A stretch of DNA of 64,000 nucleotides from a bacterium (lineage in GTDB: Bacteria > Patescibacteriota > Minisyncoccia > Ryanbacterales > GWA2-47-10b). Position 1 is the first letter of the stretch; the number at the start of each line of letters is the position of its first letter. The stretch covers positions 30,802 to 94,801 of the forward strand of contig JAQBTR010000002.1 of the NCBI GenBank assembly GCA_027624915.1. Direction: 5' to 3'. The translations under genes and the position numbers were made by a program. Below, piece by piece: positions 4,436 to 40,793 of this stretch. The notes below the pieces were generated by a model that did not search any database, was not told where the DNA came from, and was given only the letters and a program-made list of their open reading frames with translations.

Positions 4436-4459
4436 TAAAAAAGTGTAATATAAAAACAT

Positions 4460-22103: not shown

Positions 22104-22146
22104 CCTACATATTTACAAATACTTAGTTTTATAGTACCATCCTCCC

Positions 22147-22305
22147 ATGCCACAACCGAATCTAATCAGACTCAAATGTAGCGAATGCAAGCGATATAAT
22201 TACTATGCGCACAAGAATATTCGGCGTGTAGAAAAAAAACTTGAACTCAAAAAGCACTGTAAGTGGTGCAAGACACATACTTCTCACAAAGAAAATAAGA
22301 AGTGA
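22147..22305 (+). CDS. rpmG: ribosomal protein bL33 (52 aa; not in the ORF track)
   Basis: MPQPNLIRLKCSECKRYNYYAHKNIRRVEKKLELKKHCKWCKTHTSHKE - L33 CxxC...CxxC zinc ribbon. Confidence 0.8.
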   Translation: MPQPNLIRLKCSECKRYNYYAHKNIRRVEKKLELKKHCKWCKTHTSHKENKK

Positions 22306-22336
22306 AAAAAGGAGCCCTCAAGAGGGCTCTTTTGGT
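22306..22336. terminator. bidirectional terminator
   Basis: aaaaaaggAGCCCTCaagaGAGGGCTcttttggttt between convergent genes. Confidence 0.65.
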
Positions 22337-22897
22337 TTATTGTTTCTGGTTATTCTCAGCTTCTTCGGCTCTTAGCTTGCGCTCAAGGTCAAGCAGAAGT
22401 GATAGCTCATATCGATCACGCTGATGATCTGGATCTGGAGCTTCCATCTCTCCCCGTAGAAATTCTAGGACGAGTTGCGTACAGATTTCAGAAATTTTTT
22501 CTGGCTCTATTGTGATGCCGGCTTTCTCTAGACTAGCACGATGCTCGACAAGAAATATTTGTAATTCTTCTTCATGACGCTTGAGCACTTCATCTCCATC
22601 TACAATGAAGTTTTCAATGGCGGCATGGTCTTCCGGACTCAGTGGAATCTCATCATGAGTTTCTGCAGGGTCGTCATGACGGAAAATTGATGCAAACGAT
22701 AGAAACTTATTACCTCCAGGTCCCTCTTCGTGTTGTTCAGCTCTTTGCTCTTCAAACGCCCCTCTTGGAGAGAGGCGATTGATACGCCTGGATAGACCAA
22801 GAAGTAACTCTTCAGTCTGAGTCATCTCTCTTTCCTCCATTAGGTCTTCAGGTTGTTCCGGCCCTTCCCTCATGTTTGAATTCATTGTAACTCTCAA
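22337..22897 (-). CDS. hypothetical acidic protein
   Basis: 186-aa Glu/Asp-rich ORF divergent from two HTH genes; no family recognised. Confidence 0.5.
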   Translation of the reverse strand: MRVTMNSNMREGPEQPEDLMEEREMTQTEELLLGLSRRINRLSPRGAFEEQRAEQHEEGPGGNKFLSFASIFRHDDPAETHDEIPLSPEDHAAIENFIVDGDEVLKRHEEELQIFLVEHRASLEKAGITIEPEKISEICTQLVLEFLRGEMEAPDPDHQRDRYELSLLLDLERKLRAEEAENNQKQ

Positions 22898-22936
22898 TTT
22901 TTATATTGCAATAGGAGTCGACTAATCTGTCAAAGT

Positions 22937-23227
22937 GTGGTACGGATGTGTGTGGAGGTGTACACCATGAATGGTGGAGCCATAATCGATATGTCACCTA
23001 ACAGGCCGATTGGTATCGATGCCGCATATTGTACAGGTCAGCTACAAGATGTTATTGCCGATCCTAAGGCCTTTTCAGAAGAACTCGGTCTATCTCTATC
23101 AGCTGTCTATAACTACTTAAATGGACGTATTCCAACATTGGATGTAATGTTTCGTATTGCGCAATTTTGTGATCGACCGATTGAGTCTTTTTTGGTCCGC
23201 CAACCCAGAGATGGAGGTACAGGTTAG
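22937..23227 (+). CDS. XRE-family helix-turn-helix protein (paralog 1)
   Basis: HTH_XRE-like region LGLSLSAVYNYLNGRIPTLDVMFRIAQFC. Confidence 0.55.
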   Translation: MVRMCVEVYTMNGGAIIDMSPNRPIGIDAAYCTGQLQDVIADPKAFSEELGLSLSAVYNYLNGRIPTLDVMFRIAQFCDRPIESFLVRQPRDGGTG

Positions 23228-23229
23228 TA

Positions 23230-23610
23230 ATGAATGCTACGGGATCTGCTTTCATTCGCAACGAGACGGTTTCATTCGCTATCGATACTAGATATCTGGC
23301 CGATAGAATGCGGGAAGTTGTCAGAGACGAACCAAAAGCGTTCGCCTATGGTACAGGTATTTCACTTTCAGCGGTTTACAACTACATGAATGGGCGAGTC
23401 CCAACAACTGATGTTCTTTTTCGAATCGCAAAATACACTCGTCGTCCAATGGAATGGTTCCTTGATCCAGAATTTGAAGAAGAACCCACTAAGACCAAAG
23501 TAAGTAATGGGCACGAGAGCAATATGGAACGCTTTCCGTTTTCTTCGTCAGATCGGCCAACGCTGGTACAGTCTGACTCACAAGGCAGACAATATTGGGA
23601 GACTCAGTGA
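23230..23610 (+). CDS. XRE-family helix-turn-helix protein (paralog 2, with C-terminal extension)
   Basis: GISLSAVYNYMNGRVPTTDVLFRIAKYT, clearly paralogous to the upstream ORF. Confidence 0.55.
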   Translation: MNATGSAFIRNETVSFAIDTRYLADRMREVVRDEPKAFAYGTGISLSAVYNYMNGRVPTTDVLFRIAKYTRRPMEWFLDPEFEEEPTKTKVSNGHESNMERFPFSSSDRPTLVQSDSQGRQYWETQ

Positions 23611-23675
23611 CCTCACATATGAGGTCTTTTTTTATACTCAAAATAAAGTATAATGTCGGGTACTATAAGAAATAT

Positions 23676-23790
23676 GGGGGTATAAGCTCAATGGGTTTAA
23701 GCTCCGGGGGAGCTTTAACGGGAAATGTAGTGAGTTTACGAACGTAAAGCATTTCCCCAGGTCGCGTGATAGGCGCGACCTGCTGGTCAT
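23676..23790 (+). ncRNA. candidate structured RNA element 5' of tRNA-Trp (copy 1 of a two-member family)
   Basis: three consecutive hairpins; homologous to 32545-32660 with a compensatory change in hairpin 1, a shared core acgggaaat..atttcc, and the hairpin ggtcgcg-tgatRgg-cgcgac. Confidence 0.4.
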
Positions 23791-23806
23791 AGTACTATGG
23801 AAATAT

Positions 23807-23880
23807 GGGAGATTAGTTAAGTGGTATAACATCGGTCTCCAAAACCGAGGTCGGGGGTTCAATTCCCTCATCTCCCGCCA
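23807..23880 (+). tRNA. tRNA-Trp (anticodon CCA), CCA encoded
   Basis: acceptor gggagat/atctccc, anticodon loop ctccaaa, T-loop ttcaatt. Confidence 0.85.
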
Positions 23881-24258: not shown

Positions 24259-25671
24259 ATGATACGTGATGGACTTACATTCAATGATGTACTCTTGGTT
24301 CCAAAAAAGTCTGAGGTTTTTTCAAGAAAGGATATTGATACCAAGGCGTACTTAACACGACTCGTATCTATACATGTACCAATTGTCAGTGCAAACATGG
24401 ATTCTGTTACAGAATTTCAAATGGCACGAGCAATGGCAGAAAACGGTGGAATTGGAATAATCCATCGTTTTTTGTCTATTGAAGATCAGGTAGAGGAGGT
24501 TGCAAAAGTAAAGCGCGCAGAAAATACTGTCATCGAGGATCCGTACACCGTTCACCCTGATTACACTCTTTTTGATGCAAGGCGTTTTATGGAGAGCAAG
24601 TCCATATCTGGTGCCATTGTTGTAGATGACAAAAAGAAACTTGTTGGTATTATTACATCGCGAGATTTGCTTTTTGAACAAGACGACAGGAAACTTGTTA
24701 AGAATGTAATGACTCAAAAGGTGATTACAGGTGAGCCACGAATCTCACTCGATAAGGCAATTGATCTTTTGCATACTCATAGAATTGAAAAACTGCCACT
24801 CGTAACTAAAGCCGGAACATTACGAGGGCTTATTACACTTAAGGATGTTTTAAAGCGGATAAAGTATCCTCATTCTTCTAAGGATAAAAAGGGGAGACTC
24901 ATGGTGGGAGCTGCTGTTGGTGTTAAGGATGATACTTTAAAACGTACTGATGCTCTGTTACGTGCAGGGGTAGATATTATTGTTGTAGATATAGCACATG
25001 GACACAATACGCGAGCGATTACTACAACCAAGCAGATAAAAAGAAAGTTTGGTAAAAAATGTCAACTTATCGCAGGAAATGTTGCAACGCCACGTGCTGC
25101 TGAAGACTTAATAAAAGCAGGCGCTGATGGAATTAAGGTTGGCATTGGGCCAGGGGCGGCGTGTACCACGCGTATAGTAACCGGTGTTGGAGTCCCACAA
25201 CTGACAGCAATACAAGACGTTATTTCAGTGACGAAGAAGTTAAAGATTCCAATCATAGCTGATGGTGGTATTGGTAATTCGGGAGATTTTGCCAAGGCAA
25301 TAGCAGCTGGTGCACAAACAGCAATGATAGGTAGTTTGCTCGCAGGATGTGAAGAATCTCCAGGTGAATACGTTATGGAAAATGGTTCCGCATACAAACA
25401 CTACCGAGGCATGGCGAGCTATGAGGCGAGCTCTGAAAAGGTTCGTATTGATGGCGGTGGCAAAGATGGTTTTTGGCGAGCACCAGAGGGTAGGTCCGGC
25501 AAAGTTCCATACCGTGGTAAAACCTCAGGTGTTTTAAATGATCTCATGGCAGGATTGCGTAGCAGCATGAGCTATCTTGGTGCACATAATTTAAGTGAGT
25601 TTTCAAAAAACGCAGAGTTCATAAAAATGTCTCCATCTGGCATGAAAGAGTCAGATACGCGTCTTGACTAG
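24259..25671 (+). CDS. guaB: IMP dehydrogenase with CBS pair
   Basis: IMPDH catalytic loop GIGPGAACTTR, CBS domains, 470 aa. Confidence 0.85.
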   Translation: MIRDGLTFNDVLLVPKKSEVFSRKDIDTKAYLTRLVSIHVPIVSANMDSVTEFQMARAMAENGGIGIIHRFLSIEDQVEEVAKVKRAENTVIEDPYTVHPDYTLFDARRFMESKSISGAIVVDDKKKLVGIITSRDLLFEQDDRKLVKNVMTQKVITGEPRISLDKAIDLLHTHRIEKLPLVTKAGTLRGLITLKDVLKRIKYPHSSKDKKGRLMVGAAVGVKDDTLKRTDALLRAGVDIIVVDIAHGHNTRAITTTKQIKRKFGKKCQLIAGNVATPRAAEDLIKAGADGIKVGIGPGAACTTRIVTGVGVPQLTAIQDVISVTKKLKIPIIADGGIGNSGDFAKAIAAGAQTAMIGSLLAGCEESPGEYVMENGSAYKHYRGMASYEASSEKVRIDGGGKDGFWRAPEGRSGKVPYRGKTSGVLNDLMAGLRSSMSYLGAHNLSEFSKNAEFIKMSPSGMKESDTRLD

Positions 25672-29169: not shown

Positions 29170-31806
29170 ATGATGAGCTTAGAGTTATTAAACAAACAGA
29201 GGAGGGCCAGAATGGCTCGCTCAAATAGGAAGACACCAAAACGAAACCCACGCATACCGTGGTCTAGTTTTTCCAAGAAATTTGTAGATCGACTTTGCCG
29301 AATGGCAACCCAGGATGAAATCCTGGATGCTGTCGCGAAAGAATGTGGCACACGTCCCACATGGAACACGACAAGCGCATATTTTTCTCGTTCTGGATTA
29401 AAGCCTAAAGTTTTTGAAGTACTTCATGTTGCTGATCGTCTTGACGGCAAGCAACAAGAGAATTTTAGAAAACTTTGGACAAGTGATGCTTCCATTTCTG
29501 ATGTGGAAGAAGTATTTCCTGGCATAAAGAGAGATGATCTCCGTCGTATTGCTCAAAGGCTTAAAGTAAAGAGGGGTTCTCGTAAGGAGCAGGACACAGC
29601 GTTCGATGAAGTTATTTCACCTTTGTCGCCAGAAGAGGCACTCGCTGAGATGACGTTGCCAGAGCGTGAATGGGACGACCCACTTCAACTAGAGATGATG
29701 CCAGGCGCATGGGCTGATCGTGCCGTTCGAATCGGACTTATGTCCGGTATCGCATATGGCAATGATGGCATGCGTGGTGGTCTCATTAATCTTGCGATGG
29801 AACTTCTTCGTGATGAGGGTATCCGCCTCATCATCAATAATGCACACGTTGTCGATGGTAAGAGTGTTGTCGGTCAAGTGGCCGAACGCACCGTTGAACT
29901 TCGAGAGGAGTCTCGCGGGCGCCGTGCCACAAGGGCTGGTAGAGAAAGATATCCCGCACTTACTCAGGCTTCGCTACGCGATAAGGCTGCAGAAGATGTT
30001 GTGCAGGCAGTAGCCAGAGACCTTTCTTCACTCATACCCCAAATTCTCCGTCCTTTACCGATGCGCGAGAAAGGACGAATTCCATTTGTAAAGATGTATA
30101 CGCTCACGACTCCAGATACCCTATCTCTCTATGATGGAAAGTATGGAGAATCTATTGCGGAAGAATTGCAACATATTCGTGACGACATCATCTTGTATGG
30201 TGCTGGTGGGGACTGGATCTATATCAGAGATTTTGATATCAAGATTGGTATTTTGAATCCCAGCAGATCTCGACTTCCTGGTAAGTACCAGAGTACAGCC
30301 GGTGAAAAAGAGATTGATGAGAAAGAACGCCAGACATCTCAAGACTTCCCAGATCTTTGGATTGTGAATCCGTTTGCAGCAGCTGTATTTCAGCCGGCAG
30401 GCATTCGCGCACGTCCATACATCATGGGACCAGCACTTCGTCGTTTGGAAGAAGTCCACACGGCCGAGAATCAGGCTGGTATCATGATTCTGGAGTATAG
30501 ACCAAATAGACAGAAGATTGTTCGTAACTATTCGTTTAGAGATTTGATTAGAGCTGAGCTTAAGACGATTGTTACTCCGCGTGGCGCAACCAAGACGCAA
30601 AAACGTATTGTTGCGACAATCGGTGAGCACGGCGCTCTTCCTATTGGTACTCTCGAAGACCGTATGCCAGGAGTGAGTCGTGCAACGATTGAACGAGAGA
30701 TTTCTGGTCTTGTAAGCTCTACAGGCAAGCTTTCTACTCGTAAGACATGGCCTGGATTGGTTTTCGATTCGAGGTCAAAGAGATACTACTTCGATGACGA
30801 GTGGATCCAGCGAAAGTTAAGATATCGTTGGCCTAAGGACTTGGTTAGTGACCGTATGCTCTTCTTCGGATGTTTGCATGCTGGGTACACAACGACAGAC
30901 TACGAGCACTTCGTAAAGGAGTACCCTCGTATCATGCTCGAGTATGGTGTTGATCATCTCTTCGGACTTGGCGACATGATCGCTGGTCTAAAGCATGGTC
31001 TTGCATGTTCCGGCGAAGTATTCGGTGGGATGAATTATACCGAGCAAGAGGTTTTTGCCGCAGAACTCGTTGCAACGGTTTTGTTCAAAACCTTCAGGGC
31101 TCGTTTGGAGGTCAAGAGAGGCAAGAAGTCCTTGTCTGACCTTTCTTCCGAAGAGCTGTCGAACCTACTTTCTGATAGCCTCGTTCACTTCCACTATATT
31201 CATGGTAATCATGATTTGTGGCAGGAATATGACGGGCAAATTCCTCTTCAGCAGTTCAACGATGTGTTGGTGAGACTCTTGCATGATGAGACTCTCAAGA
31301 TGTTGATAGAGGAGCGAGCTCCTGCTATCGATCTTTTTGAGATTTTGGCTTCAAAAACTTCTTTCTATTCTGATTTTGCTGGAGTTGCCGAATTGCCGTC
31401 TGGCATCAGGGTGTCAATGCAACATCCTCAGATGGGTCGCGCTCAAACGACAACCTTGCGTGCCCAGCATGCAATGGGAACTCGCGGCGCACAAATCTCA
31501 GCTCTTGCTAACTTCCATGCGTCTGCCACTGTCGCCCAGTGGACTTCTGATCTCGGTCAGTGTGTAGCCATGCAGGCGGGGACGCAGGTCATCTATACGC
31601 GCTTCGAGCGTCGTAAGATGAAAAAAGAAGTTGATTTCGGCCCGCTCTATCTCCATGTCCAGTCCAAGGGTGGACGAATTTATATAGATGAACGAGCGGC
31701 GTTTAATGAAAGTATTTTAAAAGTAGCTCTTAATAAGAAACACGATTCTGAAGGCCTTAAGCGAAAGCTTGGTCTACTCCGACATCCGGATCTTATTGTT
31801 AGGTGA
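29170..31806 (+). CDS. large hypothetical protein (878 aa) with C-terminal calcineurin-like metallophosphoesterase motifs, on a higher-GC island
   Basis: GCLHAG / GDMIAG / IHGNHDLW resemble phosphoesterase motifs I-III (the motif I Asp is replaced by Cys); basic N-terminus; GC about 48-55% against 40% background. Confidence 0.55.
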   Translation: MMSLELLNKQRRARMARSNRKTPKRNPRIPWSSFSKKFVDRLCRMATQDEILDAVAKECGTRPTWNTTSAYFSRSGLKPKVFEVLHVADRLDGKQQENFRKLWTSDASISDVEEVFPGIKRDDLRRIAQRLKVKRGSRKEQDTAFDEVISPLSPEEALAEMTLPEREWDDPLQLEMMPGAWADRAVRIGLMSGIAYGNDGMRGGLINLAMELLRDEGIRLIINNAHVVDGKSVVGQVAERTVELREESRGRRATRAGRERYPALTQASLRDKAAEDVVQAVARDLSSLIPQILRPLPMREKGRIPFVKMYTLTTPDTLSLYDGKYGESIAEELQHIRDDIILYGAGGDWIYIRDFDIKIGILNPSRSRLPGKYQSTAGEKEIDEKERQTSQDFPDLWIVNPFAAAVFQPAGIRARPYIMGPALRRLEEVHTAENQAGIMILEYRPNRQKIVRNYSFRDLIRAELKTIVTPRGATKTQKRIVATIGEHGALPIGTLEDRMPGVSRATIEREISGLVSSTGKLSTRKTWPGLVFDSRSKRYYFDDEWIQRKLRYRWPKDLVSDRMLFFGCLHAGYTTTDYEHFVKEYPRIMLEYGVDHLFGLGDMIAGLKHGLACSGEVFGGMNYTEQEVFAAELVATVLFKTFRARLEVKRGKKSLSDLSSEELSNLLSDSLVHFHYIHGNHDLWQEYDGQIPLQQFNDVLVRLLHDETLKMLIEERAPAIDLFEILASKTSFYSDFAGVAELPSGIRVSMQHPQMGRAQTTTLRAQHAMGTRGAQISALANFHASATVAQWTSDLGQCVAMQAGTQVIYTRFERRKMKKEVDFGPLYLHVQSKGGRIYIDERAAFNESILKVALNKKHDSEGLKRKLGLLRHPDLIVR

Positions 31807-31836
31807 TGCTAAAGCATCACCTTTTTTGTTAGTGTT
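31802..31836 (+). terminator. rho-independent terminator
   Basis: ggtgatgctaaagcatcacc + tttttt. Confidence 0.65.
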
Positions 31837-31866
31837 GCTATAAGATACAAAAAAATACACCAGCTT

Positions 31867-32427
31867 TCACTGGTGTTCCCGTTTTATCTGGGCACGCATG
31901 CGTGCCATGATTCTTTGACTTGTTTTTTGGCCCTCTGCGTCTGTTTTTTGTGGGTAACGGATAGCTATATAGTTGACCAACAAAGAATCAAGCAGCTCAT
32001 CATCTGATGAATGTTTAAGGGGATTCAAGATGATGGTGTGTCTAAGAAGGTCGTACGTGGCCTCGCCTTTATAATCTCTCATGCAAATCACTCTAAAGTT
32101 GTTTCGAATAAGAAATTTCAATTGTGGGACCGCATTCTCTAGTGAGAGTGTATCCCACCAAAACTCACCATCCTGTGCCATAATGCGCTGAACTCCTTTT
32201 TTGATTGGCTTATGGTTACATCGCCATCCAGGATGTATGACATGAAGATACTCATGAATGAATGTATCCCACATTTCTTCAGAATTGCTGTGTTTCCTCG
32301 GGTCAATGATTACTGTTTTAGTATCTTCATCACAGAGACCCCATGCATGACCACCATTTTTTTCAGGGTACAGTTTGTCGTATTCTACAGACCATCCTTT
32401 GTTCATCAGCGCTTGAAGGCGCTTCAT
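31867..32427 (-). CDS. SprT-like (HExxH) zinc metalloprotease domain protein
   Basis: GLCDEDTKTVIID...FIHEYLHVIH matches the SprT-like/WLM pattern; start set at ATG 32427 with a GGGAGG RBS, the track ORF is longer. Confidence 0.55.
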   Translation of the reverse strand: MKRLQALMNKGWSVEYDKLYPEKNGGHAWGLCDEDTKTVIIDPRKHSNSEEMWDTFIHEYLHVIHPGWRCNHKPIKKGVQRIMAQDGEFWWDTLSLENAVPQLKFLIRNNFRVICMRDYKGEATYDLLRHTIILNPLKHSSDDELLDSLLVNYIAIRYPQKTDAEGQKTSQRIMARMRAQIKREHQ

Positions 32428-32544
32428 AACAGGCCTCCCTTGGCTTTTACAGTCTATACATATGCAAACATATTTTCTTTGCTTATCCAAGGGGTAGAAA
32501 TGCATAACTATTTGTGTTATAGTTGGCGCTACAATAAAAAATAG

Positions 32545-32660
32545 GGAGGAGTGGCTGAGTGGGTCACAGGTCTGGGAGAGCTGTGACGGGAAATATAGCG
32601 AGCTTGTCGAGCGTATAGTATTTCCTCGGGTCGCGTGATGGGCGCGACGACTAGCGCACA
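32545..32660 (+). ncRNA. candidate structured RNA element 5' of tRNA-Ser (copy 2 of the family); begins with an 18-nt duplicate of the tRNA-Ser 5' end
   Basis: ggaggagtggctgagtgg is identical to the tRNA-Ser start; then hairpin gtcacag...ctgtgac, core acgggaaatatag...tatttcc, hairpin gggtcgcg-tgatggg-cgcgac. Confidence 0.4.
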
Positions 32661-32701
32661 AAGTACGTAATGCTTTTCCGGAACAATTTAGATATACATA
32701 T

Positions 32702-32788
32702 GGAGGAGTGGCTGAGTGGTTGAAGGCGGCAGTCTTGAAAACTGTTAAGGGTGAAAGCCCTTCGTGAGTTCGAATCTCACCTCCTCCG
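32702..32788 (+). tRNA. tRNA-Ser (anticodon TGA), type II, CCA not encoded
   Basis: acceptor ggaggag/ctcctcc, anticodon loop cttgaaa, variable-arm hairpin aagggtgaaagcccttc. Confidence 0.85.
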
Positions 32789-32795
32789 CATCAAA

Positions 32796-32830
32796 ACAAA
32801 TGGGATACCTTGCGTATCCTTTTTTTGTTT
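32796..32830 (+). terminator. rho-independent terminator after tRNA-Ser
   Basis: tgggatac-cttgc-gtatcc + ttttttt. Confidence 0.55.
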
Positions 32831-32837
32831 TGAGATA

Positions 32838-32918
32838 GGGAAGGGATTCGAACCGGAATGCTAAACGCATTCCGCGGGTTGTCTGATAAGAGGCAACCGA
32901 ATCCCACCTTCTCCGCCA
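32838..32918 (+). repeat. tRNA-downstream structured element (copy 2 of the family seen at 11467-11565) ending in a tRNA 3'-end-like ...ccgaatcccaccttctccgcca
   Basis: hairpin ggaatgc-taaac-gcattcc, then gcgggttgtc-tgataag-aggcaacc, then gaatccc + acceptor-like 3' strand + CCA; parallel architecture to 11503-11565. Confidence 0.5.
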
Positions 32919-33062
32919 AAAAACGAAATCGGATTTTAGAGCCGAAATTGGGTCGACGCTTCGCGCCGACCCAGATTTGCGTTCAGAAACCCTTTTCGAA
33001 AAATTGCGGTGTGTATTGAACGAAGTTCGAATGTATTTTGAGTTGAAGTTTTAGAATAATTT

Positions 33063-33335
33063 TTGACACGAATTAACTCTGGGCGTAGGCTATCCAGTAG
33101 ACGAAGCGGAGACCATATGTCTAGAGACGGAGCATACTATGTTCAATTTGAGCTTGGGCGATTGAGTGGCGACATGAATACTCACACGCTTTTGATCCCG
33201 CTGCAGGCGGCTACCAACGAAGATGCGGTTAGAGAAGGTCAAAGAATGTTCATGGAACATAGAGATTTAGGACAGAGTAATCCATCCTTTAGGGTTTTTC
33301 ACCTCATACATGAAGAAAGAGCAGAAGAGAAATGA
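33063..33335 (+). CDS. hypothetical protein
   Basis: ORF only; start uncertain. Confidence 0.35.
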   Translation: MTRINSGRRLSSRRSGDHMSRDGAYYVQFELGRLSGDMNTHTLLIPLQAATNEDAVREGQRMFMEHRDLGQSNPSFRVFHLIHEERAEEK

Positions 33336-33553
33336 CGACGGAAATCCTAGAAGAGGCCTTGTGTCGTGTTACGTGCCAAAAAGGAACTACACGAACGTTT
33401 TGGATAGGATTTCCTTTAGATATGTTTCCAAAACCATCAGCAATAGAGATGGGTAGGCGTCTACTTCCCGCTGAAGATCTAGGATGCATTTCTTGTATTT
33501 TGCACGAATCGTGTGGAGAGCCGATAGACGTTAAATTAACACTCATGGGTTAA
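33332..33553 (+). CDS. hypothetical small Cys-containing protein
   Basis: ORF overlapping the upstream stop (ATGA); terminator hairpin follows. Confidence 0.35.
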   Translation: MTTEILEEALCRVTCQKGTTRTFWIGFPLDMFPKPSAIEMGRRLLPAEDLGCISCILHESCGEPIDVKLTLMG

Positions 33554-33639
33554 TACAGTCGCCATGCATGGCGGCTTTTTTGTTTTTTATATACCCAGTA
33601 TGTCTTTCAAAAAAGTAGTGCTGGGTTTACAATGCTTTT

Positions 33640-34368
33640 ATGTTTTTGATTAGAAATATAAAAGTGAAAGGAACGATAAAGAAGGGACGAGGTGTTTTTG
33701 CAACATCAGACATCAAAGCCGGAACCGTAATAGGTGATTACTTAGGAACAATACTTCCAGAAAAAGAAGACGATTTATCTCGTGGTCTTTATAGTATGGC
33801 CTGGGGAGGAGATGATGATACGATTATTTTGGCTAACCCAGATAAAAATGGTATTCATTTGATTAATCACTCTTGCGTACCTAATACATGGATGCATCCA
33901 TATAATGGACGAACGGTTTATTTTGCGTTGCGAAAAATTTTTAAGGATGAAGAGTTAACTATCAACTATCTCATAGGTGAGCCCGACGAAGATTGTAAGC
34001 CTTGTGATGACGTGTGCCACTGTGGTGATATCTTTTGTCACGGAACCCAGCATTCCTCTGAATACTTAGTAGATGCGCATGAGAAATACGAGCGTCGTAT
34101 AATTAAAAAGCAACATATACCAAGACGTCCAAAGAGTGGAACACAATTAAAAAAACTATCACGTTATCCCAAGTCTATAAGCGATGATCCTGTTTTCGTT
34201 CTTTTTTCTAATAGAAAAAAATCTCCTGTAAAAATAGAAAACGATGAGTTTCCGCCAATCAAAACTTTGCGATGTCTCATTCGAGAAACGGGGAGGTCTT
34301 TAGAGTTTTCTAAGATTGGTCTTACTGTTGTTGGCATACGAGAGGGTCATGCTATTGTAAAGACATAG
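33640..34368 (+). CDS. SET-domain protein (putative protein lysine methyltransferase) with post-SET Cys cluster
   Basis: NHSCVPN and ELTINY SET motifs; CKPCDDVCHCGDIFCHG post-SET cysteines. Confidence 0.75.
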   Translation: MFLIRNIKVKGTIKKGRGVFATSDIKAGTVIGDYLGTILPEKEDDLSRGLYSMAWGGDDDTIILANPDKNGIHLINHSCVPNTWMHPYNGRTVYFALRKIFKDEELTINYLIGEPDEDCKPCDDVCHCGDIFCHGTQHSSEYLVDAHEKYERRIIKKQHIPRRPKSGTQLKKLSRYPKSISDDPVFVLFSNRKKSPVKIENDEFPPIKTLRCLIRETGRSLEFSKIGLTVVGIREGHAIVKT

Positions 34369-34373
34369 ACCAT

Positions 34374-36047
34374 ATGAAATATTTTCTTTCCGTTACTATT
34401 TTCCTAGTACTCCCCGTGTTTCTTTTTGCTCATGGAGGTGAGGAGCACGACCCTATCATAATGACTGTAACAGATGAAGGTTTTGCTCCTAGTCAGATTA
34501 CTGTCGTTGCAGGAGAAACGGTAACTTTTGAAAACGATGGAAAGGAGGATCACTGGCCTGCATCTGATGTTCACCCAACACATGAAGCATACTCCGCTCT
34601 TGATCCAAGACGACCAATCATTCCAAGAGCATCATGGAGCTTCACATTTGAAGAGGAGGGACAATATACAATACATGACCACTTATTCCCGGATTTTGGT
34701 GGTCTCATTACTGTAAAACCTGAGGGTACAGTTATTGTTCGAGATGGTTTACCAGAACAAAAAAATATAGAAGCTCCACCAGAAGAGAAAGAGCCAGGAT
34801 TTTTTGCACGTAAATGGGTCTCCATAAAAAGATTTTTAGGGTGGGTTTTTGGTAGAAACGATAATAATCAGGAGATAGATAAAACAGAAGAGACTCAAGA
34901 AAAGATATCAGATGAGGAGGTGGTTTTGATACAAGAGGTTCGTCAAGAGATTGATACTCATTTTACAGAGCCTACTACATACAATAAAGATTTTCTGTAC
35001 AAAAGTTTTGATTTAGGCTGTACAAGTTCTAATCACGGATGTATTAGTAATTCTGTAAAAGATTTAACACGAGACTATGGTCCTGTTGCTGCTGTTGAGT
35101 TACTCGAAATTATGGTTGCCGATGGTCGTGTTTCAAGATCAATTAATGACCATCAATTATCTCATGAGATTGGTAGAGAGGCCGCGCGTTCGTATGGAGT
35201 CAACAGCGAAGCATTTTTGTTATGCCCCATGTCAGCGTTTAATGGTGGGTGTCAGCACGGTTTCTTTGAATATGTTTTAGGTAGAACAGAGTCGACATCA
35301 CAGGCAGCAGATTTAATATGCAAATCACTCGGAGATACATACTCAAATAAATTTAAATTTTACTGTTACCATGGAGTTGGTCATGGGGTTATGATGCAAC
35401 AAGCATATGACTTACAGGCATCATTAGATACTTGTGATTCATTAGACGGGCTGTCCGCACAGGATGGTTGTTGGCAAGGAGTGTTTATGGAAAATACTAA
35501 TGCTGGTATGTCTGGTGAGGCACGCGCTGGACTATTTTCTCTAGAGGACCCTCTAGCACCATGTAATCAGGTTGAGGACAAGTATCGTAATGAATGCTAT
35601 CTAAATCACGCTGGTTATTTAATGAAGTTTTTTGGCAATGATATACGTCGTGGTGCGCATTCATGTCTGGAGGCTGGAGAATGGATTCCTTCATGTCTCC
35701 AAAGTCTTGGCCTCATGGTTACAAATCCTTCATGGCAAGGTGCACTACTCCCAGGAGCCGCTCAATTAGGTGAGGTACGTTCAGCATGGGAGCTTTGCCG
35801 TATGTTTCCAACTGATCACATAAGTCAGTGTGTACAGGGTGGTGTCGACAATATAATTAACTTTGATGAGTTTGATGTCGGTCGAGCTGATGAATTTTGT
35901 AGTATAATTGATACACAGGATCAAGAGTTGTGTTTTAGAGGGATAGGTCGTAATCTTAGAAACGATTCTATAAATCAACAACAAGTAACTGATGCGTGTA
36001 ATTTGTTATCAACACAAGAGAGTAGAGACTGGTGTCTTTTAAGATAA
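34374..36047 (+). CDS. secreted protein: N-terminal cupredoxin-like domain (Cys ligand replaced) + Cys-rich repeat region (paralog A)
   Basis: signal peptide; GFAPSQITVVAGETVTFENDG...HWPASDVHPTH...YTIHDHLFPDFGGLITV cupredoxin-like; then about 24 Cys in repeating C-x-HG / C-Y-H-G-V-G-H-G units. Confidence 0.6.
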   Translation: MKYFLSVTIFLVLPVFLFAHGGEEHDPIIMTVTDEGFAPSQITVVAGETVTFENDGKEDHWPASDVHPTHEAYSALDPRRPIIPRASWSFTFEEEGQYTIHDHLFPDFGGLITVKPEGTVIVRDGLPEQKNIEAPPEEKEPGFFARKWVSIKRFLGWVFGRNDNNQEIDKTEETQEKISDEEVVLIQEVRQEIDTHFTEPTTYNKDFLYKSFDLGCTSSNHGCISNSVKDLTRDYGPVAAVELLEIMVADGRVSRSINDHQLSHEIGREAARSYGVNSEAFLLCPMSAFNGGCQHGFFEYVLGRTESTSQAADLICKSLGDTYSNKFKFYCYHGVGHGVMMQQAYDLQASLDTCDSLDGLSAQDGCWQGVFMENTNAGMSGEARAGLFSLEDPLAPCNQVEDKYRNECYLNHAGYLMKFFGNDIRRGAHSCLEAGEWIPSCLQSLGLMVTNPSWQGALLPGAAQLGEVRSAWELCRMFPTDHISQCVQGGVDNIINFDEFDVGRADEFCSIIDTQDQELCFRGIGRNLRNDSINQQQVTDACNLLSTQESRDWCLLR

Positions 36048-36052
36048 ATACC

Positions 36053-37648
36053 ATGAAAAAAAATCTACTAACAATTTTACTTTTAATGTTTTTGACAACA
36101 GCTGGTGTTGTTTTTGCTCATGAATCAGATATAACGGATACCGTTGTTATTCATATGAGCAATGATGGTTTTAATCCAAAAGAGGTGATTATACAACGCG
36201 GAGAGAAGGTTGTTTTTGAAAATGTGGGAGAAGATGAACACTGGCCAGCTTCTAATATTCACCCAACGCATCGTGCCTATCCAAAATCTGACATTAGCGA
36301 TTGTGGTACAACAAATGAGCGATTTATGTTTGATGCATGTAAACCAATAAAACCAAATCAGACATACACATTTCAATTTGATGAACTTGGTGAATGGAGA
36401 TTTCATGACCATCTTAATGCGACCTTCAGCGGTCAAATACATGTAGTAGAAAATGGTGGAGCGCAAGAAGAAAAAGTGGAAGAAAAGAAGCCAGGAATTT
36501 TAAGACGTTTTTGGAACTGGTTAAAAGGTATTTTTAGTCGTAATGAAGTTGTTGATGATATACGAGAAGACATCATAGATAGGGAAGATGAAGATTCGGC
36601 ACTTTTAGATATAGAATATGAAGAAAAGAAATGGGTGTATAATCCCAACGTTGAAGTAGACTCAACTCTGATAGCAACAGATAAGGACGAACTGTTTTCA
36701 TATGTAAAAAAATACAGCCCCTCAAGGGCTCTTGAGCAGTTGTTTTCAATTGAAAGTCAGTTCGGCAACTGTCATGATAATGCTCACTATGTAGGAAGAT
36801 TTTCTTATGAGCTTTATGATTCTGAAGCATTCAGGCAGTGTGCAATGTTATGTCAGTCTGGTTGTTATCACGGTGCGGTAGAAGCATATTTTCGTGAGCA
36901 TGGGACATCAAATCTTGCGGACAACATAAATAAACTTTGTTCTGGTAATACAAATCCATTTATTGTTCATCAATGTCGTCATGGCGTGGGGCATGGATTA
37001 TTGGCATGGTCAGACTATGCATTATTTGATGCACTAGAGGATTGCAATCTTTTGCAGCAGGGAGAGGCACAGACCTCGTGCTATAGTGGTGTGTTTATGG
37101 AAAATATTGTACAAAGTATGGCATCCTTCTTAGAAATTGAAGGACACACAACACAATACTTAAGTGATGATCCTCACTACCCATGTAATATTGTTGATGC
37201 TCAATACAAGCCCACATGTTATTTCTTACAGACCGATCGCATGGTTGAGTTGTCCGGTGGAAATTTTGCTACAGTTGCTCAAAATTGTTCTGAGGTTGAG
37301 GATGTCTTTTCTCGTCGAATGTGTTTTGAAAGTATGGGACGAACTGTTGGGGGAAGAAATAGAAATAATCCACCAGGGGCTATTAGTACTTGTTACAATG
37401 CTAACCCCGGAACAGATAGACTCGGTTGTTTGATGGGGGCGGTACAGGATACATTCTGGGATCCATCAGGGCAAGACAATGCAATTAGTTTTTGCAAATT
37501 ACTTACACCAGAAGATGAGAAGGACACTTGCTATGGAATGATTTTTGGACGAGCGCCACAGGTTCTTACCAAAGAGGCTGACCACAGAGCTTTTTGTCAA
37601 AAAGCAGAAACTACCTACCAGGGTCGTTGTCTGGCATATATTAGATAA
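36053..37648 (+). CDS. secreted cupredoxin-like + Cys-rich repeat protein (paralog B)
   Basis: signal peptide MKKNLLTILLLMFLTTAGVVFA; same architecture as 34374-36047 (GFNPKEVIIQRGEKVVFENVGEDEHWPASNIHPTH; QCRHGVGHG). Confidence 0.6.
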   Translation: MKKNLLTILLLMFLTTAGVVFAHESDITDTVVIHMSNDGFNPKEVIIQRGEKVVFENVGEDEHWPASNIHPTHRAYPKSDISDCGTTNERFMFDACKPIKPNQTYTFQFDELGEWRFHDHLNATFSGQIHVVENGGAQEEKVEEKKPGILRRFWNWLKGIFSRNEVVDDIREDIIDREDEDSALLDIEYEEKKWVYNPNVEVDSTLIATDKDELFSYVKKYSPSRALEQLFSIESQFGNCHDNAHYVGRFSYELYDSEAFRQCAMLCQSGCYHGAVEAYFREHGTSNLADNINKLCSGNTNPFIVHQCRHGVGHGLLAWSDYALFDALEDCNLLQQGEAQTSCYSGVFMENIVQSMASFLEIEGHTTQYLSDDPHYPCNIVDAQYKPTCYFLQTDRMVELSGGNFATVAQNCSEVEDVFSRRMCFESMGRTVGGRNRNNPPGAISTCYNANPGTDRLGCLMGAVQDTFWDPSGQDNAISFCKLLTPEDEKDTCYGMIFGRAPQVLTKEADHRAFCQKAETTYQGRCLAYIR

Positions 37649-37649
37649 C

Positions 37650-38561
37650 ATGGAAATAACTCCTTATACGATAAACATGCGTCAGCTCATTGAAGACGCT
37701 ATACAAAACTTTGGTTACGCACCAGAACATAATGTGTACTGGTTTGAAAATGGTGCAGAGGACGAACAAAAGCCATACTTCGTTACATTTGATGATGGCG
37801 ACGGCATGTTCGCATATAAAGAAGATAATATTTGGTATACGCTATCAGATCCAATTGCCCCCAAAAAAGATTGTGCGAAAAGAATAAATGAGTTTGCAAG
37901 AAAAGTATTTGCTGATGCATCGATCGATAAAATTGTTGTTGAATATAATACTGAGATACGTAAGGAGCTTAGTACACTTTTGGCGCCAGAATATAAAGTA
38001 AAAGCAATTAATTACACATTAGTATGGCCAGTTACTGATATGTCGAAGTTCGACCCCGAACTACCCGGTAAAAAATGGAAGAGCATACGAAATGCAAGAA
38101 ACAGGTTTTATCGTGAACATGATGTTATCGTAAAAGATATAAAAGACGTTTCAAAAGATAATTTACATTCTGTAATTAATCGTTGGGAAGATGGCCGTGG
38201 ACAAGCAGACGGAAGTAGGGGGGACATCACATATTCTGATTCATTTCATTCGATGGTGGATTCTGGATTTCCGGGATGCGATGGCGCTCGAGCAATGTTT
38301 GTAGATGGGGCTGTTGTTGGATTTAATGCTGGATGGGTTATACCCAATTCAGAAACATATTATGGCGCTATAGGGCTCCATGATTATTCAGTTCAAGATT
38401 TGGGACAAATGCTGTATCTAGAAGATCTTGTGTGGATAAAAAAATGTGGATATCCAAAAACTGATATGGCCGGAGGTGAAAAGGAGCTTACAAGTTTTAA
38501 AAATCATTTTCATCCAGATTATTGGTACAAGACGCATGCATTTTCAATAGCACGCGCGTGA
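37650..38561 (+). CDS. FemAB/BioF2-like GNAT-fold protein (putative aminoacyl/acyl transferase), paralog 1
   Basis: C-terminal region resembles the FemAB-like acetyltransferase domain (...GFNAGWVIPNSETYYGAIGLHDY...AGGEKELTSFKNHF); 1-nt overlap with its paralog. Confidence 0.45.
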   Translation: MEITPYTINMRQLIEDAIQNFGYAPEHNVYWFENGAEDEQKPYFVTFDDGDGMFAYKEDNIWYTLSDPIAPKKDCAKRINEFARKVFADASIDKIVVEYNTEIRKELSTLLAPEYKVKAINYTLVWPVTDMSKFDPELPGKKWKSIRNARNRFYREHDVIVKDIKDVSKDNLHSVINRWEDGRGQADGSRGDITYSDSFHSMVDSGFPGCDGARAMFVDGAVVGFNAGWVIPNSETYYGAIGLHDYSVQDLGQMLYLEDLVWIKKCGYPKTDMAGGEKELTSFKNHFHPDYWYKTHAFSIARA

Positions 38562-39463
38562 TGATCACTCTTCAGCCCTATACAAAAGACACAAGATCTA
38601 TTGTACTCGATACAATACAAAAGTATGGATTTTCTCCTGAACATAATATTTTTGATTTTGAGAATGTAATAGATGATTATTCCGAAGCCTTTATTGGAGT
38701 CATTGATGATGAGTATATTGTTTTAACACAAGAAGACGATGAAAAAACATGGTGGGTATTTGCAGATCCCCTAGCCCCCCCAAAAAAACGTGGAATGGCT
38801 ATCGCACAATTCTTGGAGTATGTATTTTCTAAAGAAGATGCCAAGAGAGTAACGTGCGAACTCTTTTCTGCTACAAAAGATGAGTTATTAGACCACTTGC
38901 CTAAATACTTGGATATTGAGCCGCAAGAGAACACTCTTATAGGGCCAATCTTTGAACTCGAGCAATTTGATGAAAGTCTTGGTGGTCACCAATTAAAAAA
39001 AATTCGGAGTGTTGTCCGACAGTTTAATGAAAATGTTAAGATTGAGGCGCGTCCAGCACAGAATTCACCGCATGAGGATGCTATGGGTGTCATACACCGG
39101 TGGATCCATAACCGCACCTTTAAGGATGAGGTGTTTATCGAATACTATCAGAGATTTGTTGAGAGTAACTTTGAAGGAGCCGAAGAAACACGGGTGCTCT
39201 ATGTTAATAATAAACCCGTCGCACTGAATGGTGGTTGGCGTGTGCCAAATTCGGAGACATTTTATAATGCACTTTCACTCCATGATTATTCCTTAAGGGG
39301 TCTTGGTGAGATAATAATGGTTGAAGCACTCTCGTACTTAAAAAATAAAGGATATACGTATGCAGATTTTGGTGTTGGAGAAAAAAATCTAACCTCATTT
39401 AAACAAAAATTTTGTAAAAATAAACTTCAGACGGCATATGAGTTTTCAGTAGTAAAAAAATAA
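38561..39463 (+). CDS. FemAB/BioF2-like GNAT-fold protein, paralog 2
   Basis: collinear similarity to the upstream gene (PYT..., SPEHN..., NGGWRVPNSETFYNALSLHDYS..., FGVGEKNLTSFKQKF). Confidence 0.45.
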   Translation: MITLQPYTKDTRSIVLDTIQKYGFSPEHNIFDFENVIDDYSEAFIGVIDDEYIVLTQEDDEKTWWVFADPLAPPKKRGMAIAQFLEYVFSKEDAKRVTCELFSATKDELLDHLPKYLDIEPQENTLIGPIFELEQFDESLGGHQLKKIRSVVRQFNENVKIEARPAQNSPHEDAMGVIHRWIHNRTFKDEVFIEYYQRFVESNFEGAEETRVLYVNNKPVALNGGWRVPNSETFYNALSLHDYSLRGLGEIIMVEALSYLKNKGYTYADFGVGEKNLTSFKQKFCKNKLQTAYEFSVVKK

Positions 39464-39484
39464 TAAAAACAATATAATAAAAAA

Positions 39485-40792
39485 GTGGAGTCAAAAAACA
39501 GTAATGGTAGGAAAAAAATAAAAAAATTTCTTTTTGTTTCATCTTGGGGCATGATTGGTGACCTTGCTTGGCACATTCAAAGGGAGGGAGCTGAAGTTAG
39601 GTTTTATTTGGATTGTGAAGATGATGTTCTTGATGGTTTTTTGGATAAAGTTGAAGACTGGAAAGATCATAAGGATTGGGCCGACATTATCATTTTTGAT
39701 GAGGTTGGCTATGGATACGGTAAGATTGCCGATGCCTTACGAAAAGAAGGTAAGTTTGTCATTGGTGGAAGTGCATACACAGACAAACTAGAAGAAGACA
39801 GAGAATTTGGCCAAGCTGAAATGGAGTCGGTTGGGATGACGATTTTACCCCACTGGAACTTTAGTGATTTTGATGAGGCAATAAAATTTATACAAGAGAA
39901 TCCGGGACGTTATGTCTTTAAGCCATCTGGAGATATTTCTGGTAATGAAAAAGGGATTCTGTTCATTGGAGAGGAGGAAGATGGTAACGACATTATTGAA
40001 GTCCTCGAACATAACAAAAAAAGTTGGTCCAAGAAAATAAAAAACTTTGTGCTTCAAAAGTTTGCATCGGGCGTAGAAATTGCAGTTGGAGCCTTCTTTA
40101 ATGGAAATGATTTTGTGTATCCTGTAAATGTAAATTTTGAGCATAAGAAGTTGTTCCCTGGTGATATTGGTCCATATACCGGAGAGATGGGAACGCTTAT
40201 GTTTTGGTCAGAACCTAATAATCTTTTTAAGATGACGCTCGAAAAGATGCGCGAGAAATTAAAAGAATCGGGCTATGTTGGATATATAGATATAAACTGT
40301 ATAGCAAACTCGCGCGGTATTTACCCACTTGAATTCACGGCGCGTTTTGGCTATCCGACAATCAATATACAGATGGAGGGCGTCACTAGTTTGTGGTCAG
40401 AGTTTTTTTATTCACTATCACGTGGGGAGGGGTTTGACCTTAAAACAAAGCATGGATTCCAAGTTGGCGTAGTTGTTGCGGTTCCTCCATTCCCATACCA
40501 CGCTAAAGCAGAAGTAGAGATGTATAAGGACTTTTCTATTTTATTTAAACGACCTAATCTTGAGGGGATACACTTGGGGGAGGTAAAACTTGTTGATGGT
40601 GATTGGCATTTGGCAGGGACTACCGGGTACACGCTTATCGTGACAGGAGCTAACAGTACTGTTGAGGAGGCTCGTGAGCAGGCATACAAACGAGTACGCA
40701 ATATCATGCTGCAAAATATGTTCTATCGGACAGATATAGGGGAGAAGTGGTACCACGAGAGTGACCATTTGCAAACCTGGGGTATTCTTTGA
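39485..40792 (+). CDS. purD: ATP-grasp enzyme of the phosphoribosylamine-glycine ligase (PurD) family, divergent
   Basis: HKKLFPGDIGPYTGEMG (cf. PurD HKRVGDGDTGPNTGGMG), LEFTARFGYP, C-terminal YRTDIGEKW; no other pur genes in the window. Confidence 0.6.
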   Translation: MESKNSNGRKKIKKFLFVSSWGMIGDLAWHIQREGAEVRFYLDCEDDVLDGFLDKVEDWKDHKDWADIIIFDEVGYGYGKIADALRKEGKFVIGGSAYTDKLEEDREFGQAEMESVGMTILPHWNFSDFDEAIKFIQENPGRYVFKPSGDISGNEKGILFIGEEEDGNDIIEVLEHNKKSWSKKIKNFVLQKFASGVEIAVGAFFNGNDFVYPVNVNFEHKKLFPGDIGPYTGEMGTLMFWSEPNNLFKMTLEKMREKLKESGYVGYIDINCIANSRGIYPLEFTARFGYPTINIQMEGVTSLWSEFFYSLSRGEGFDLKTKHGFQVGVVVAVPPFPYHAKAEVEMYKDFSILFKRPNLEGIHLGEVKLVDGDWHLAGTTGYTLIVTGANSTVEEAREQAYKRVRNIMLQNMFYRTDIGEKWYHESDHLQTWGIL

Positions 40793-40793
40793 G

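Follow-up and report, generated by a model that had tools for sequence, protein, structure and literature searches.

The window analysed here, a 64,000-nt stretch of a Patescibacteria chromosome, carries a large gene whose product belongs to a hitherto undescribed family of metal-dependent, double-domain phosphoesterases, probably nucleases, whose taxonomically labelled members so far all come from Patescibacteria. The present analysis establishes the family membership of this protein, its invariant ligand set, its fold, its duplication, its conserved gene order, the lack of matches in mobile-element collections and its independence of the HExxH gene, and we further infer its catalytic activity, metal identity and nucleic-acid substrate. 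On balance, we lean towards a composite reading in which a vertically inherited gene of a new family, built by tandem duplication of a metallophosphoesterase (MPE) domain, most likely encodes a metal-dependent nucleic-acid phosphodiesterase, with the adjacent HExxH gene being unrelated to it.

Both open reading frames claimed in the preliminary description of this DNA are real (878 aa on the plus strand and 186 aa on the minus strand), and each is followed by an intrinsic terminator:

29170..31806, plus strand: large gene, tandem metallophosphoesterase-family protein (maximal ORF of 878 aa)
31801..31822, plus strand: intrinsic terminator of the large gene (9-bp stem, then a T-run)
31867..32427, minus strand: orphan HExxH protein, 186 aa (HEYLH at 32242-32256)
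31857..31876, minus strand: intrinsic terminator of the HExxH gene

The likely start of the large gene is the ATG at 29212, which is preceded by a better Shine-Dalgarno sequence (GGAGG) and gives a protein of 864 aa, identical to the GenBank model P0001 (MAG hypothetical protein O2794_01010). The large gene and the HExxH gene lie tail to tail, 60 nt apart, so that the pair is convergent, as the text of the preliminary description had it, and not divergent, as in its title. The HExxH gene had also been taken for the only neighbour, but a 902-aa DAO/Rieske/ferric-reductase/DM13 fusion gene sits 140 nt upstream of the large gene. Since it has its own terminator, the large gene is monocistronic. 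The higher GC content attributed to it is real, at 47.2% (GC3 42.5%) where genes average 41.6% (GC3 34.1%), although smaller than the 48-55% given before, 55% being reached only in single 300-nt windows within the gene. The modest excess is also seen in its orthologues and is a trait of the family.

The family was first revealed by an exhaustive HMMER search, which returned 157 representatives at E<=1e-3 and 115 at <=1e-30. A word-indexed homology search had recovered just one relative besides the protein itself, and a repeat with a 107-sequence profile returned the same two proteins. Family members are cytoplasmic proteins of ~650-920 aa, with 19-55% identity to the window protein and a mean column identity of 19%. 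Taxonomic labels are available for nine loci only, all of them from Patescibacteria (eight loci plus the near-identical L008-L010 lineage, counted once). The large protein had no match in Pfam, NCBIfam or PADLOC, and its PHROG match was insignificant (E 0.16). The Pfam profile PF00149 did not match it at E<=1, and matched 5 of 17 relatives weakly (best E 0.003). Sequence searches of the PDB with the protein, with a 2-sequence profile and with a 26-sequence profile of the catalytic domain gave no significant match.

The large protein is composed, in order, of a basic helical extension, a ligand-less duplicate of the phosphoesterase domain, a winged helix and the putative catalytic domain. Domain boundaries and active-site geometry were deduced from the secondary-structure string and alignments:

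29170..29619, plus strand: basic helical N-terminal extension, aa 1-150 (helices from the model)
29722..30564, plus strand: N-terminal phosphoesterase-like domain, aa ~185-465 (hhalign and model secondary structure)
30577..30729, plus strand: winged-helix (wHTH) domain, aa ~470-520
30844..31719, plus strand: calcineurin-like MPE domain, putatively catalytic, aa ~559-850
30871..30879, plus strand: motif I, Cys568-Leu-His570 (C and H invariant in 108 of 108 full-length members)
30970..30975, plus strand: motif II, Gly601-Asp602 (Asp602 the bridging Asp; both invariant)
31204..31215, plus strand: motif III, Gly679-Asn680-His681-Asp682 (G, N and H invariant)
31423..31425, plus strand: motif IV, His752, in HP (invariant in 108 of 108)
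31510..31518, plus strand: motif V, Asn781-Phe-His783 (N and H in 107 of 108 rows, the remaining row being a gap)

The motifs FFGCLHAG, GLGDMIAG and GNHD, including the Asp-to-Cys change in motif I, had been recognized from the single sequence, and they are real rather than chance resemblances, because their residues are invariant in the 107-108 full-length homologues on which all invariance counts are based. The canonical Asp of motif I is replaced throughout the family by the invariant Cys568, and in the GHxH of motif V the last His is kept while the first has become the invariant Asn781. Behind motif II, G606 is invariant and position 609 is H in 105 of 108 members; at position 682 in motif III, 84 of the 108 have D and 19 have C, and E463, which belongs to the inactive half, and E813 are also invariant across the family. 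Going by these alignments, the C-terminal copy appears to keep a complete but unusual binuclear-type site made up of Cys-x-His, Asp, Asn-His, His and Asn-x-His. The protein shares with the MPE superfamily the four-layer alpha/beta-beta/alpha sandwich fold and motifs II (GD), III (GNH[D/E]) and IV (His); it departs from it in having Cys-x-His instead of Asp-x-His in motif I and in falling below the gathering score of PF00149. A Cys-x-His motif I is known in Dbr1, which is itself still a member of the superfamily (PMC5113202). The Cys and Asn substitutions in the active site could alter metal content or chemistry.

Inactive MPEs have lost ligand residues, and the large protein could in principle be a non-catalytic scaffold, like the inactivated MPE domains of eukaryotic polymerase B-subunits or of Vps29. 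Against this, the seven ligand-type positions, like the general-acid His, are all strictly invariant among proteins with 19-55% identity to the window protein, which is the pattern expected from selection on catalysis, and we regard a scaffold role for the whole protein as very improbable. Such domains (Pol alpha/delta/epsilon B-subunits, Vps29) do offer a precedent, as ligand-less scaffolds, for what is proposed for the N-terminal half, with the difference that the large protein fuses an inactive copy to an apparently active one in a single chain.

Profile-profile alignment of the two halves with hhalign was colinear over 242-253 columns with a score of 26.5, compared with 3.9 +/- 2.5 (maximum 11.4) for 30 block-shuffled controls. 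A BLASTP comparison of the halves was not significant, and the duplication is visible only by profile-profile comparison with shuffled controls. In the predicted model, the N-terminal and catalytic domains have a parallel order of secondary-structure elements. The positions that correspond to metal ligands hold R/G, D/N, G, V/T, C/G and G/A in the N-terminal copy. The N-terminal domain is an anciently duplicated copy of the catalytic domain, and it is presumed to be inactive because the metal ligands are absent. The N-terminus preceding it is basic, as had been pointed out, with a net charge of +13 over residues 1-150. In the model, this extension looks like two three-helix HTH/Myb-like units, and one long-form family member has a weak match to Myb_DNA-binding (E 0.0018). 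Extensions of 100 aa or more are a minority feature, found in 20 of 107 members.

The most likely function of the large protein, in our view, would be that of a nucleic-acid phosphodiesterase. The family goes back to a tandem duplication of the calcineurin-like MPE fold, and the N-terminal copy, having lost every metal ligand, probably serves as a structural partner, forming a built-in pseudo-dimer. The winged helix and the basic extension may hold the nucleic-acid substrate, with His681 as the candidate general acid, and the protein would most likely act as an exo- or endonuclease of the DP1/Mre11 type in DNA or RNA maintenance. It is nevertheless distinct from the PolD DP1 exonuclease (3'-5') and from Mre11/SbcD, being only ~9-14% identical to them and without a sequence-level PDB match, and having Cys rather than Asp in motif I and Asn-x-His rather than His-x-His in motif V. 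In addition, its fused inactive duplicate takes the place of homodimerisation, and the family gene has no linked Rad50/SbcC or polymerase partner gene. The linked Rad50/SbcC ATPase and the capping domain that mark Mre11/SbcD are both missing. No SMC/Rad50-like ATPase adjoins the family gene in 13 distinct contexts, no polymerase subunit linked to it was found, and DNA-repair neighbours occur in only ~4 of the 13.

These contexts also contain no conserved operon partner that hints at the substrate. It is possible, though unlikely, that the protein is instead a phosphodiesterase or phosphatase of small molecules (cyclic nucleotides, dinucleoside polyphosphates or phosphomonoesters), in which case, with its winged helix, it might be a transcription regulator that processes its ligand. 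Among smaller relatives of the fold, the MJ0936/YfcE-type enzymes are single-domain proteins of ~165-185 aa with Asp-x-His in motif I, whereas the present family is four to five times larger and combines a domain duplication, a wHTH and helices inserted between motifs II and III.

The Cys of motif I brings Dbr1 into consideration, the only well-studied MPE clade with Cys-x-His in place of Asp-x-His, a feature that sets it apart from virtually all others; this Cys is essential in Dbr1, and the C11D variant retains only 7% activity (PMC5113202, PMC4176325). The large protein's family resembles Dbr1 in its invariant Cys-x-His and in the conserved general-acid His in the GNH of motif III. A bacterial analogue of Dbr1 would be a 2'-5' phosphodiesterase debranching lariats or other branched nucleic acids, for example the lariats of group II introns or msDNA-like branches. 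Patescibacteria are known for their intron-rich rRNA genes. However, the large protein matches Dbr1 closely neither in structure nor in sequence, and no Dbr1 chain in the PDB was found at E<=10 with the profile of the family's catalytic half. There is no evident lariat-recognition loop or helical C-terminal domain of the Dbr1 kind, the two differ at the first position of motif V, and Dbr1 belongs to eukaryotes, this family to Patescibacteria. Most likely, the motif I Cys of the family arose independently of Dbr1, and we consider debranching improbable as the function of the protein. If true, it would make the protein the first bacterial debranching enzyme, with an independent origin on a duplicated phosphoesterase scaffold.

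The genomic position of the large gene is conserved, and the following genes of the window serve as synteny anchors:

19105-21819, plus strand: ClpB, upstream anchor (same order in L003)
21869-21954, plus strand: tRNA-Tyr, upstream anchor (same order in L003)
22028-22103, plus strand: tRNA-Thr, upstream anchor (same order in L003)
23807-23880, plus strand: tRNA-Trp, upstream anchor (same order in L003)
24259..25671, plus strand: IMPDH (in L004 and L008-L010 the family gene follows it directly)
40761-41822, plus strand: YceG/MltG, downstream anchor (Pfam E 7e-76; colinear with L002 and L003)
41856-42881, plus strand: MnmA, downstream anchor (Pfam E 5e-71; colinear with L002 and L003)
42924-44687, plus strand: AlaRS, downstream anchor (Pfam E 2e-98; colinear with L002 and L003)

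Orthologues occupy the same syntenic slot in the related loci L002, L003, L004 and L008-L010. The order in L003 is ClpB, tRNA-Tyr, tRNA-Thr, tRNA-Trp, family gene, YceG, MnmA and AlaRS; in L008-L010 it is IMPDH, family gene and YceG, and in L004 IMPDH and family gene. The frame of ClpB, tRNA-Tyr/Thr/Trp, (IMPDH), family gene and YceG/MltG is common to Niyogibacteria, Paceibacterota and others, and in six lineages no more than 5 kb separates YceG from the family gene. A lead from positional analogy with RuvX/YqgF was also followed: RuvX was not among ten window ORFs tested, a result that is uninformative for the genome as a whole. The large gene is chromosomal and inherited vertically, given this colinear synteny, the labels confined to Patescibacteria, and the lack of matches in phage, plasmid and IMG/VR collections and in PADLOC.

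The preliminary description had instead proposed that the two genes make up a cargo module, mobile or defence-related (antirestriction), inserted beside a tRNA, and had named a conserved housekeeping family present at the same locus in all relatives as evidence to the contrary. Because the gene holds the same slot in other Patescibacteria, that contrary evidence is largely at hand, and for the large gene the cargo reading is already largely refuted. Several observations do fit it: a GC content 5-6 points over the window mean, a tRNA-Ser with two tRNA-derived fragments close by, the position of the HExxH gene within a 9-kb stretch missing in relatives, and a weak match of the HExxH protein to a phage family (PHROG_1233). 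Yet several lineages have the large gene in the same syntenic slot, its GC excess recurs as a family trait, and it is not missing from its slot in relatives as a genomic island would be. PADLOC gave no match at E<=1 for either protein. Relatives of the large protein were absent from the viral contigs of IMG/VR in an alignment-based scan and from phage and plasmid collections in tblastn searches, and Foldseek against BFVD retrieved only generic phage MPEs (9-16% identity). The ORFs scanned between 17.7 and 47.2 kb included neither an integrase nor a recombinase, and no att-like direct repeats bracketing the cargo were found.

What had been called a tRNA-Ser repeat cluster is really one tRNA gene with two short fragments:

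32545..32562, plus strand: fragment, 18 nt identical to the 5' end of tRNA-Ser (not a gene)
32702..32789, plus strand: tRNA-Ser(UGA), sole intact tRNA of this part (ARAGORN; Rfam tRNA 58 bits)
32898..32918, plus strand: fragment, tRNA-Ser-like 3' end copy (17/19) with CCA (not a gene)

Searches of the flanks for a second tRNA or other RNA gene with Rfam (E<=1) and relaxed ARAGORN gave low-scoring artefacts only. The fragments bracket ~100-140 nt each and do not enclose the protein genes.

The HExxH gene is a different matter. It lies, as does the tRNA-Ser, in the stretch of 31.9-40.8 kb that is absent relative to L002, L003 and L008, and this stretch does have the patchy distribution of a genomic island. 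The gene has a strong ribosome-binding site (AAGGGAGG), and its product consists of two tandem ~93-aa repeats (internal repeat E 2e-8), the first with HEYLH and the second degenerate (VNYIA). Among 5.8 billion proteins, it matched only itself; no homologue was present in any of the 15 related family loci, and neither the PDB nor phages gave a match. The SprT-like label that it had received lacks statistical support, with the HExxH motif present and no SprT-like Pfam match at E<=1; its best matches were DUF6782 (E 0.08) and PHROG_1233, of unknown function (E 2.3e-5). Its single-sequence AlphaFold model (pLDDT 44) is unusable for fold comparison. It resembles SprT, Wss1 and minimal HExxH zincins in carrying the motif on a predicted helix after a beta-hairpin and in its weak similarity to the putative metallopeptidase family DUF6782. 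It differs from them in having no identified third-ligand motif or zinc ribbon and in being an orphan tandem repeat with a degenerate second copy. It may be a small peptidase of the zincin type. A second 186-aa ORF on the minus strand of the window, at 22337-22897, was considered as a paralogue and rejected. The HExxH gene is a lineage-specific orphan in a variable, window-specific 9-kb insert and is not a partner of the large gene, since it is absent from the 15 loci and separately terminated. A joint cargo module is therefore extremely improbable. As a caution, a GC bump beside a tRNA does not suffice for inferring a mobile island.

A large fraction of bacterial diversity belongs to the Patescibacteria, whose lineage-specific proteins mostly lack annotation. 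A former 'hypothetical protein' is now a defined family of ~157 clusters, for which there is no Pfam or NCBIfam model, with a confident fold, a domain map, an invariant and uncommon putative catalytic signature (Cys-x-His ... Asn-x-His), a fused pseudo-dimer architecture and a conserved chromosomal place by YceG/MltG. The family provides a second, independent case of a putative Cys-for-Asp metal ligand, so far tied to Dbr1, which should be useful for understanding metal selectivity and chemistry in the MPE superfamily. It also gives biochemists something definite to assay in organisms whose toolkits for DNA and RNA maintenance are very small.

The large gene (29170–31806, forward strand, maximal ORF of 878 aa) lies in a window with 41.6% GC that carries nearly all its genes on the forward strand. 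Its protein returned nothing at E≤1 from Pfam, NCBIfam or PADLOC, and its sole match in PHROGs was insignificant (E 0.16). A word-indexed search of 5.8 billion proteins recovered only the protein itself and one relative (54% identical), and when 1.84 billion cluster representatives were searched exhaustively with HMMER, 157 proteins were found at E≤1e-3, 115 of them at E≤1e-30. Most members of this family are 650–720 aa long and align to query residues ~185–870; only 20 of the 107 aligned members have an N-terminal extension of 100 aa or more. Among 107–108 full-length members, 19–55% identical to the query, the residues E463, C568, H570, G601, D602, G606, G679, N680, H681, H752, N781, H783 and E813 (numbered on the 878-aa form) are invariant. 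The preliminary description had correctly recognized phosphoesterase motifs with Cys replacing Asp in motif I and, given the invariance of C568 across the family, this replacement is a defining family character rather than a local substitution. The relationship to metallophosphoesterases hardly shows in sequence comparisons: matches to the Pfam profile Metallophos were obtained in 5 of 17 family members (best E 0.003), to HTH_11 in 3 of 17 and to Myb_DNA-binding in 1 of 17, and no PDB chain matched the family profile. Fold and motifs II–IV place the family in the calcineurin-like superfamily, from which it differs in the motif I Cys, in the Asn-x-His of motif V and in scores below the Pfam thresholds. 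In one 646-aa member, P0010, a TAT-signal-like sequence (Pfam TAT_signal, E 5.6e-4) stands at the N-terminus where the inactive domain's first strands would be; the protein may be an exported variant, or its gene may have been miscalled.

An AlphaFold2 model of the large protein, based on a 107-sequence alignment, reached a mean pLDDT of 93 and a pTM of 0.83, and in it the order of secondary-structure elements in residues 185–455 parallels that in residues 559–845. Profile-profile comparison of the two halves was colinear across 242–253 columns with a score of 26.5, against 3.9 ± 2.5 (maximum 11.4) for 30 block-shuffled controls and 4.9 for the reversed profile. At the positions that align with the metal ligands, the N-terminal copy has R/G, D/N, G, V/T, C/G and G/A; judged by sequence, this metallophosphoesterase (MPE)-like copy is a ligand-less duplicate. 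We infer domain boundaries that place a basic helical extension (net charge +13) first, followed by the inactive MPE-like domain, a winged helix and the catalytic MPE domain.

The protein has an invariant set of ligand-type residues at the canonical MPE positions and a confidently modelled MPE fold; it also contains a winged helix and an inactive duplicate fused into the same chain. It is predicted to be a metal-dependent phosphodiesterase that would use His681 as the general acid, the role of the corresponding His in Mre11 and Dbr1. Its inactive copy would stand in for the second subunit found in dimeric MPE nucleases, and nucleic acid would be bound by the winged helix and the basic extension. 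The motif I Cys ligand is Dbr1-like; in Dbr1, Cys11 is essential and the C11D variant keeps 7% activity (PMC5113202). Taken as a whole, a nuclease-type role is the reading we lean towards, by a little. The main rival, a phosphodiesterase or phosphatase acting on small molecules, appears rather improbable, and the fold ranking did not separate nucleases from small-molecule enzymes.

Family genes were found at six loci in GTDB genomes, all of Patescibacteria (Parcubacteria, Niyogibacteria, Yanofskybacteria and two Saccharibacteria), and a further member, from Ca. Paceibacterota, shares only 33% identity with the query by HMMER and about 29% by tblastn. The window is colinear with a Niyogibacteria contig (L003) over a frame beginning with several genes and HtrA; the order common to both is HtrA, ClpB, tRNA-Tyr(gta), tRNA-Thr(ggt), tRNA-Trp(cca), family gene, YceG/MltG, MnmA and AlaRS. 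Other loci are arranged as follows.

Gene order around other family members
L002: family gene, then YceG
L004: IMPDH, then family gene
Paceibacterota member: Obg, IMPDH, family gene, YceG, rpsP, KH, trmD
Saccharibacteria contig: family gene, Lon, PCMT-YceG
L012: family gene, 151-aa ORF, ClpX, PCMT, YceG

Six independent lineages have YceG no more than 5 kb from the family gene. This linkage recurs in L002, L003, L007, the near-identical L008–L010, L012, L015 and the window (YceG at 40761–41822); the genes are neighbours in three lineages and at most five genes apart in three more, often with a Clp or Lon protease and PCMT in between. In many other bacteria, ruvX/yqgF is located upstream of mltG; the likeness is one of position alone, and the 10 window ORFs tested included no RuvX. 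The remaining contexts are ordinary housekeeping neighbourhoods, with DNA-repair genes (UvrD, PDDEXK, HhH-GPD, DnaQ-like exonuclease) occasionally nearby. In the Logan contig L011, four consecutive T4SS-pilin/TrbC genes (3158–4691) are directly upstream of a short-form family member. The family gene belongs to the chromosomal backbone, not to an island, and its vertical inheritance, like the identity and fold of its product, is much more firmly grounded than the assignment of a substrate.

The start of the large gene is more probably the ATG at 29212 than position 29170, since GGAGG precedes this ATG and the resulting product agrees with the 864-aa GenBank protein ('MAG: hypothetical protein O2794_01010 [bacterium]'). 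Its GC content (47.2%; GC3 42.5%) exceeds the means of the 42 window ORFs (41.6% and 34.1%) and is the highest among them save for one odd ORF; the elevation reported earlier is therefore real, although smaller than the 48–55% proposed. Family genes rank second in GC at L001 (of 14), L002 (of 13), L003 (of 15) and L007 (of 8), and have the highest GC3 of the locus in L002 and L003. Because the gene is GC-rich in other genomes too, its composition is intrinsic to the gene rather than a sign of recent import. GC and GC3 above those of neighbours were seen in independent genomes (L001–L003, L007 and the window) despite conserved synteny, and Arg content accounts for only part of the excess. The odd ORF (13515–14054, forward strand, 179 aa) has 58.9% GC and a GC3 of 66.7% within the 41.6% GC window; its product has a hydrophobic N-terminal segment and an Arg/Ser/Gly-rich tail. 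Pfam gave no match to it, nor did Rfam even at E≤1.

Relative to the conserved frame, the window has three added segments, at 22.1–23.8, 24.3–29.0 and 31.9–40.8 kb.

Features of the added segments
22104–23806: segment added between tRNA-Thr and tRNA-Trp relative to L003
22337–22897, reverse strand: very acidic 186-aa ORF, no Pfam match
23230–23610: HTH_3 protein, within the 22104–23806 segment
26322–29030, forward strand: 902-aa one-chain fusion of FAD oxidoreductase (DAO), Rieske 2Fe-2S, ferric-reductase-like transmembrane and DM13 domains
31900–40800: window-specific 9-kb insert between family gene and YceG, also containing a PurD-like gene
31867–32661, reverse strand: longest ORF form of the HExxH gene, convergent with the large gene, in the insert
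32702–32789: tRNA-Ser(UGA), single intact tRNA, in the insert
33640–34368: SET-domain protein, in the insert
34374–36047 and 36032–37648: two overlapping cupredoxin-like paralogues, in the insert
37545–38561 and 38522–39463: two LPG_synthase_C paralogues, in the insert

In the 24.3–29.0 kb segment, an HTH protein and the redox fusion are extra, and IMPDH belongs to the frame (L004, L008). The fusion, unusual in a small-genome bacterium, is missing at the corresponding position in L003, L004 and L008. The 9-kb insert has 37.7–40.4% GC, slightly below the window mean.

The large gene and the HExxH gene lie tail to tail across a 60-nt gap, each with its own hairpin and T-run terminator. The HExxH gene starts at ATG 32427, with AAGGGAGG in front, and encodes the 186-aa O2794_01015. 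No homologue other than itself was found among 5.8 billion proteins, no match in PDB or phage records, and none at the 15 loci bearing family members (best E 0.12). The best profile matches were DUF6782 (E 0.08) and PHROG_1233 (unknown function, E 2.3e-5); none was SprT-like, contrary to the first assignment. The protein consists of two tandem ~93-aa repeats, in register (E 2e-8), the first with an intact HEYLH and the second degenerate (VNYIA). This pattern of a live plus a dead copy resembles that of the neighbouring phosphoesterase, to which the protein is unrelated. A single-sequence model (pLDDT 44) was unusable; all it showed was a hairpin and, after it, the HExxH helix. The product is plausibly a putative small zincin-type peptidase, and its gene is no partner of the large gene.

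What had been described as a tRNA-Ser cluster is one tRNA with two fragments: 18 nt at 32545–32562, 157 nt upstream, that repeat its 5' end exactly, and a copy of its 3' end (17/19, with CCA) at 32898–32918, about 108 nt downstream. Paired with each other, the fragments could form an acceptor stem containing a single G-U; they may represent an older tRNA-Ser gene split by about 335 nt bearing the intact copy. No integrase was found near them.

The preliminary description had combined these elements into a mobile or defence module, a proposal left unsupported by the conserved synteny, with orthologues in the conserved frame in L003, L002, L004 and the Paceibacterota member. Family relatives were absent from IMG/VR and from phage or plasmid collections, no PADLOC defence model matched either protein, and BFVD yielded only generic phage MPEs at 9–16% identity. 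The large protein instead represents a new variant, restricted to one lineage, within a known enzyme superfamily, and its gene occupies a conserved chromosomal position. The protein is of interest mainly for its Dbr1-like Cys ligand, its tandem design of a dead and a live domain, and a distribution so far confined to Patescibacteria.
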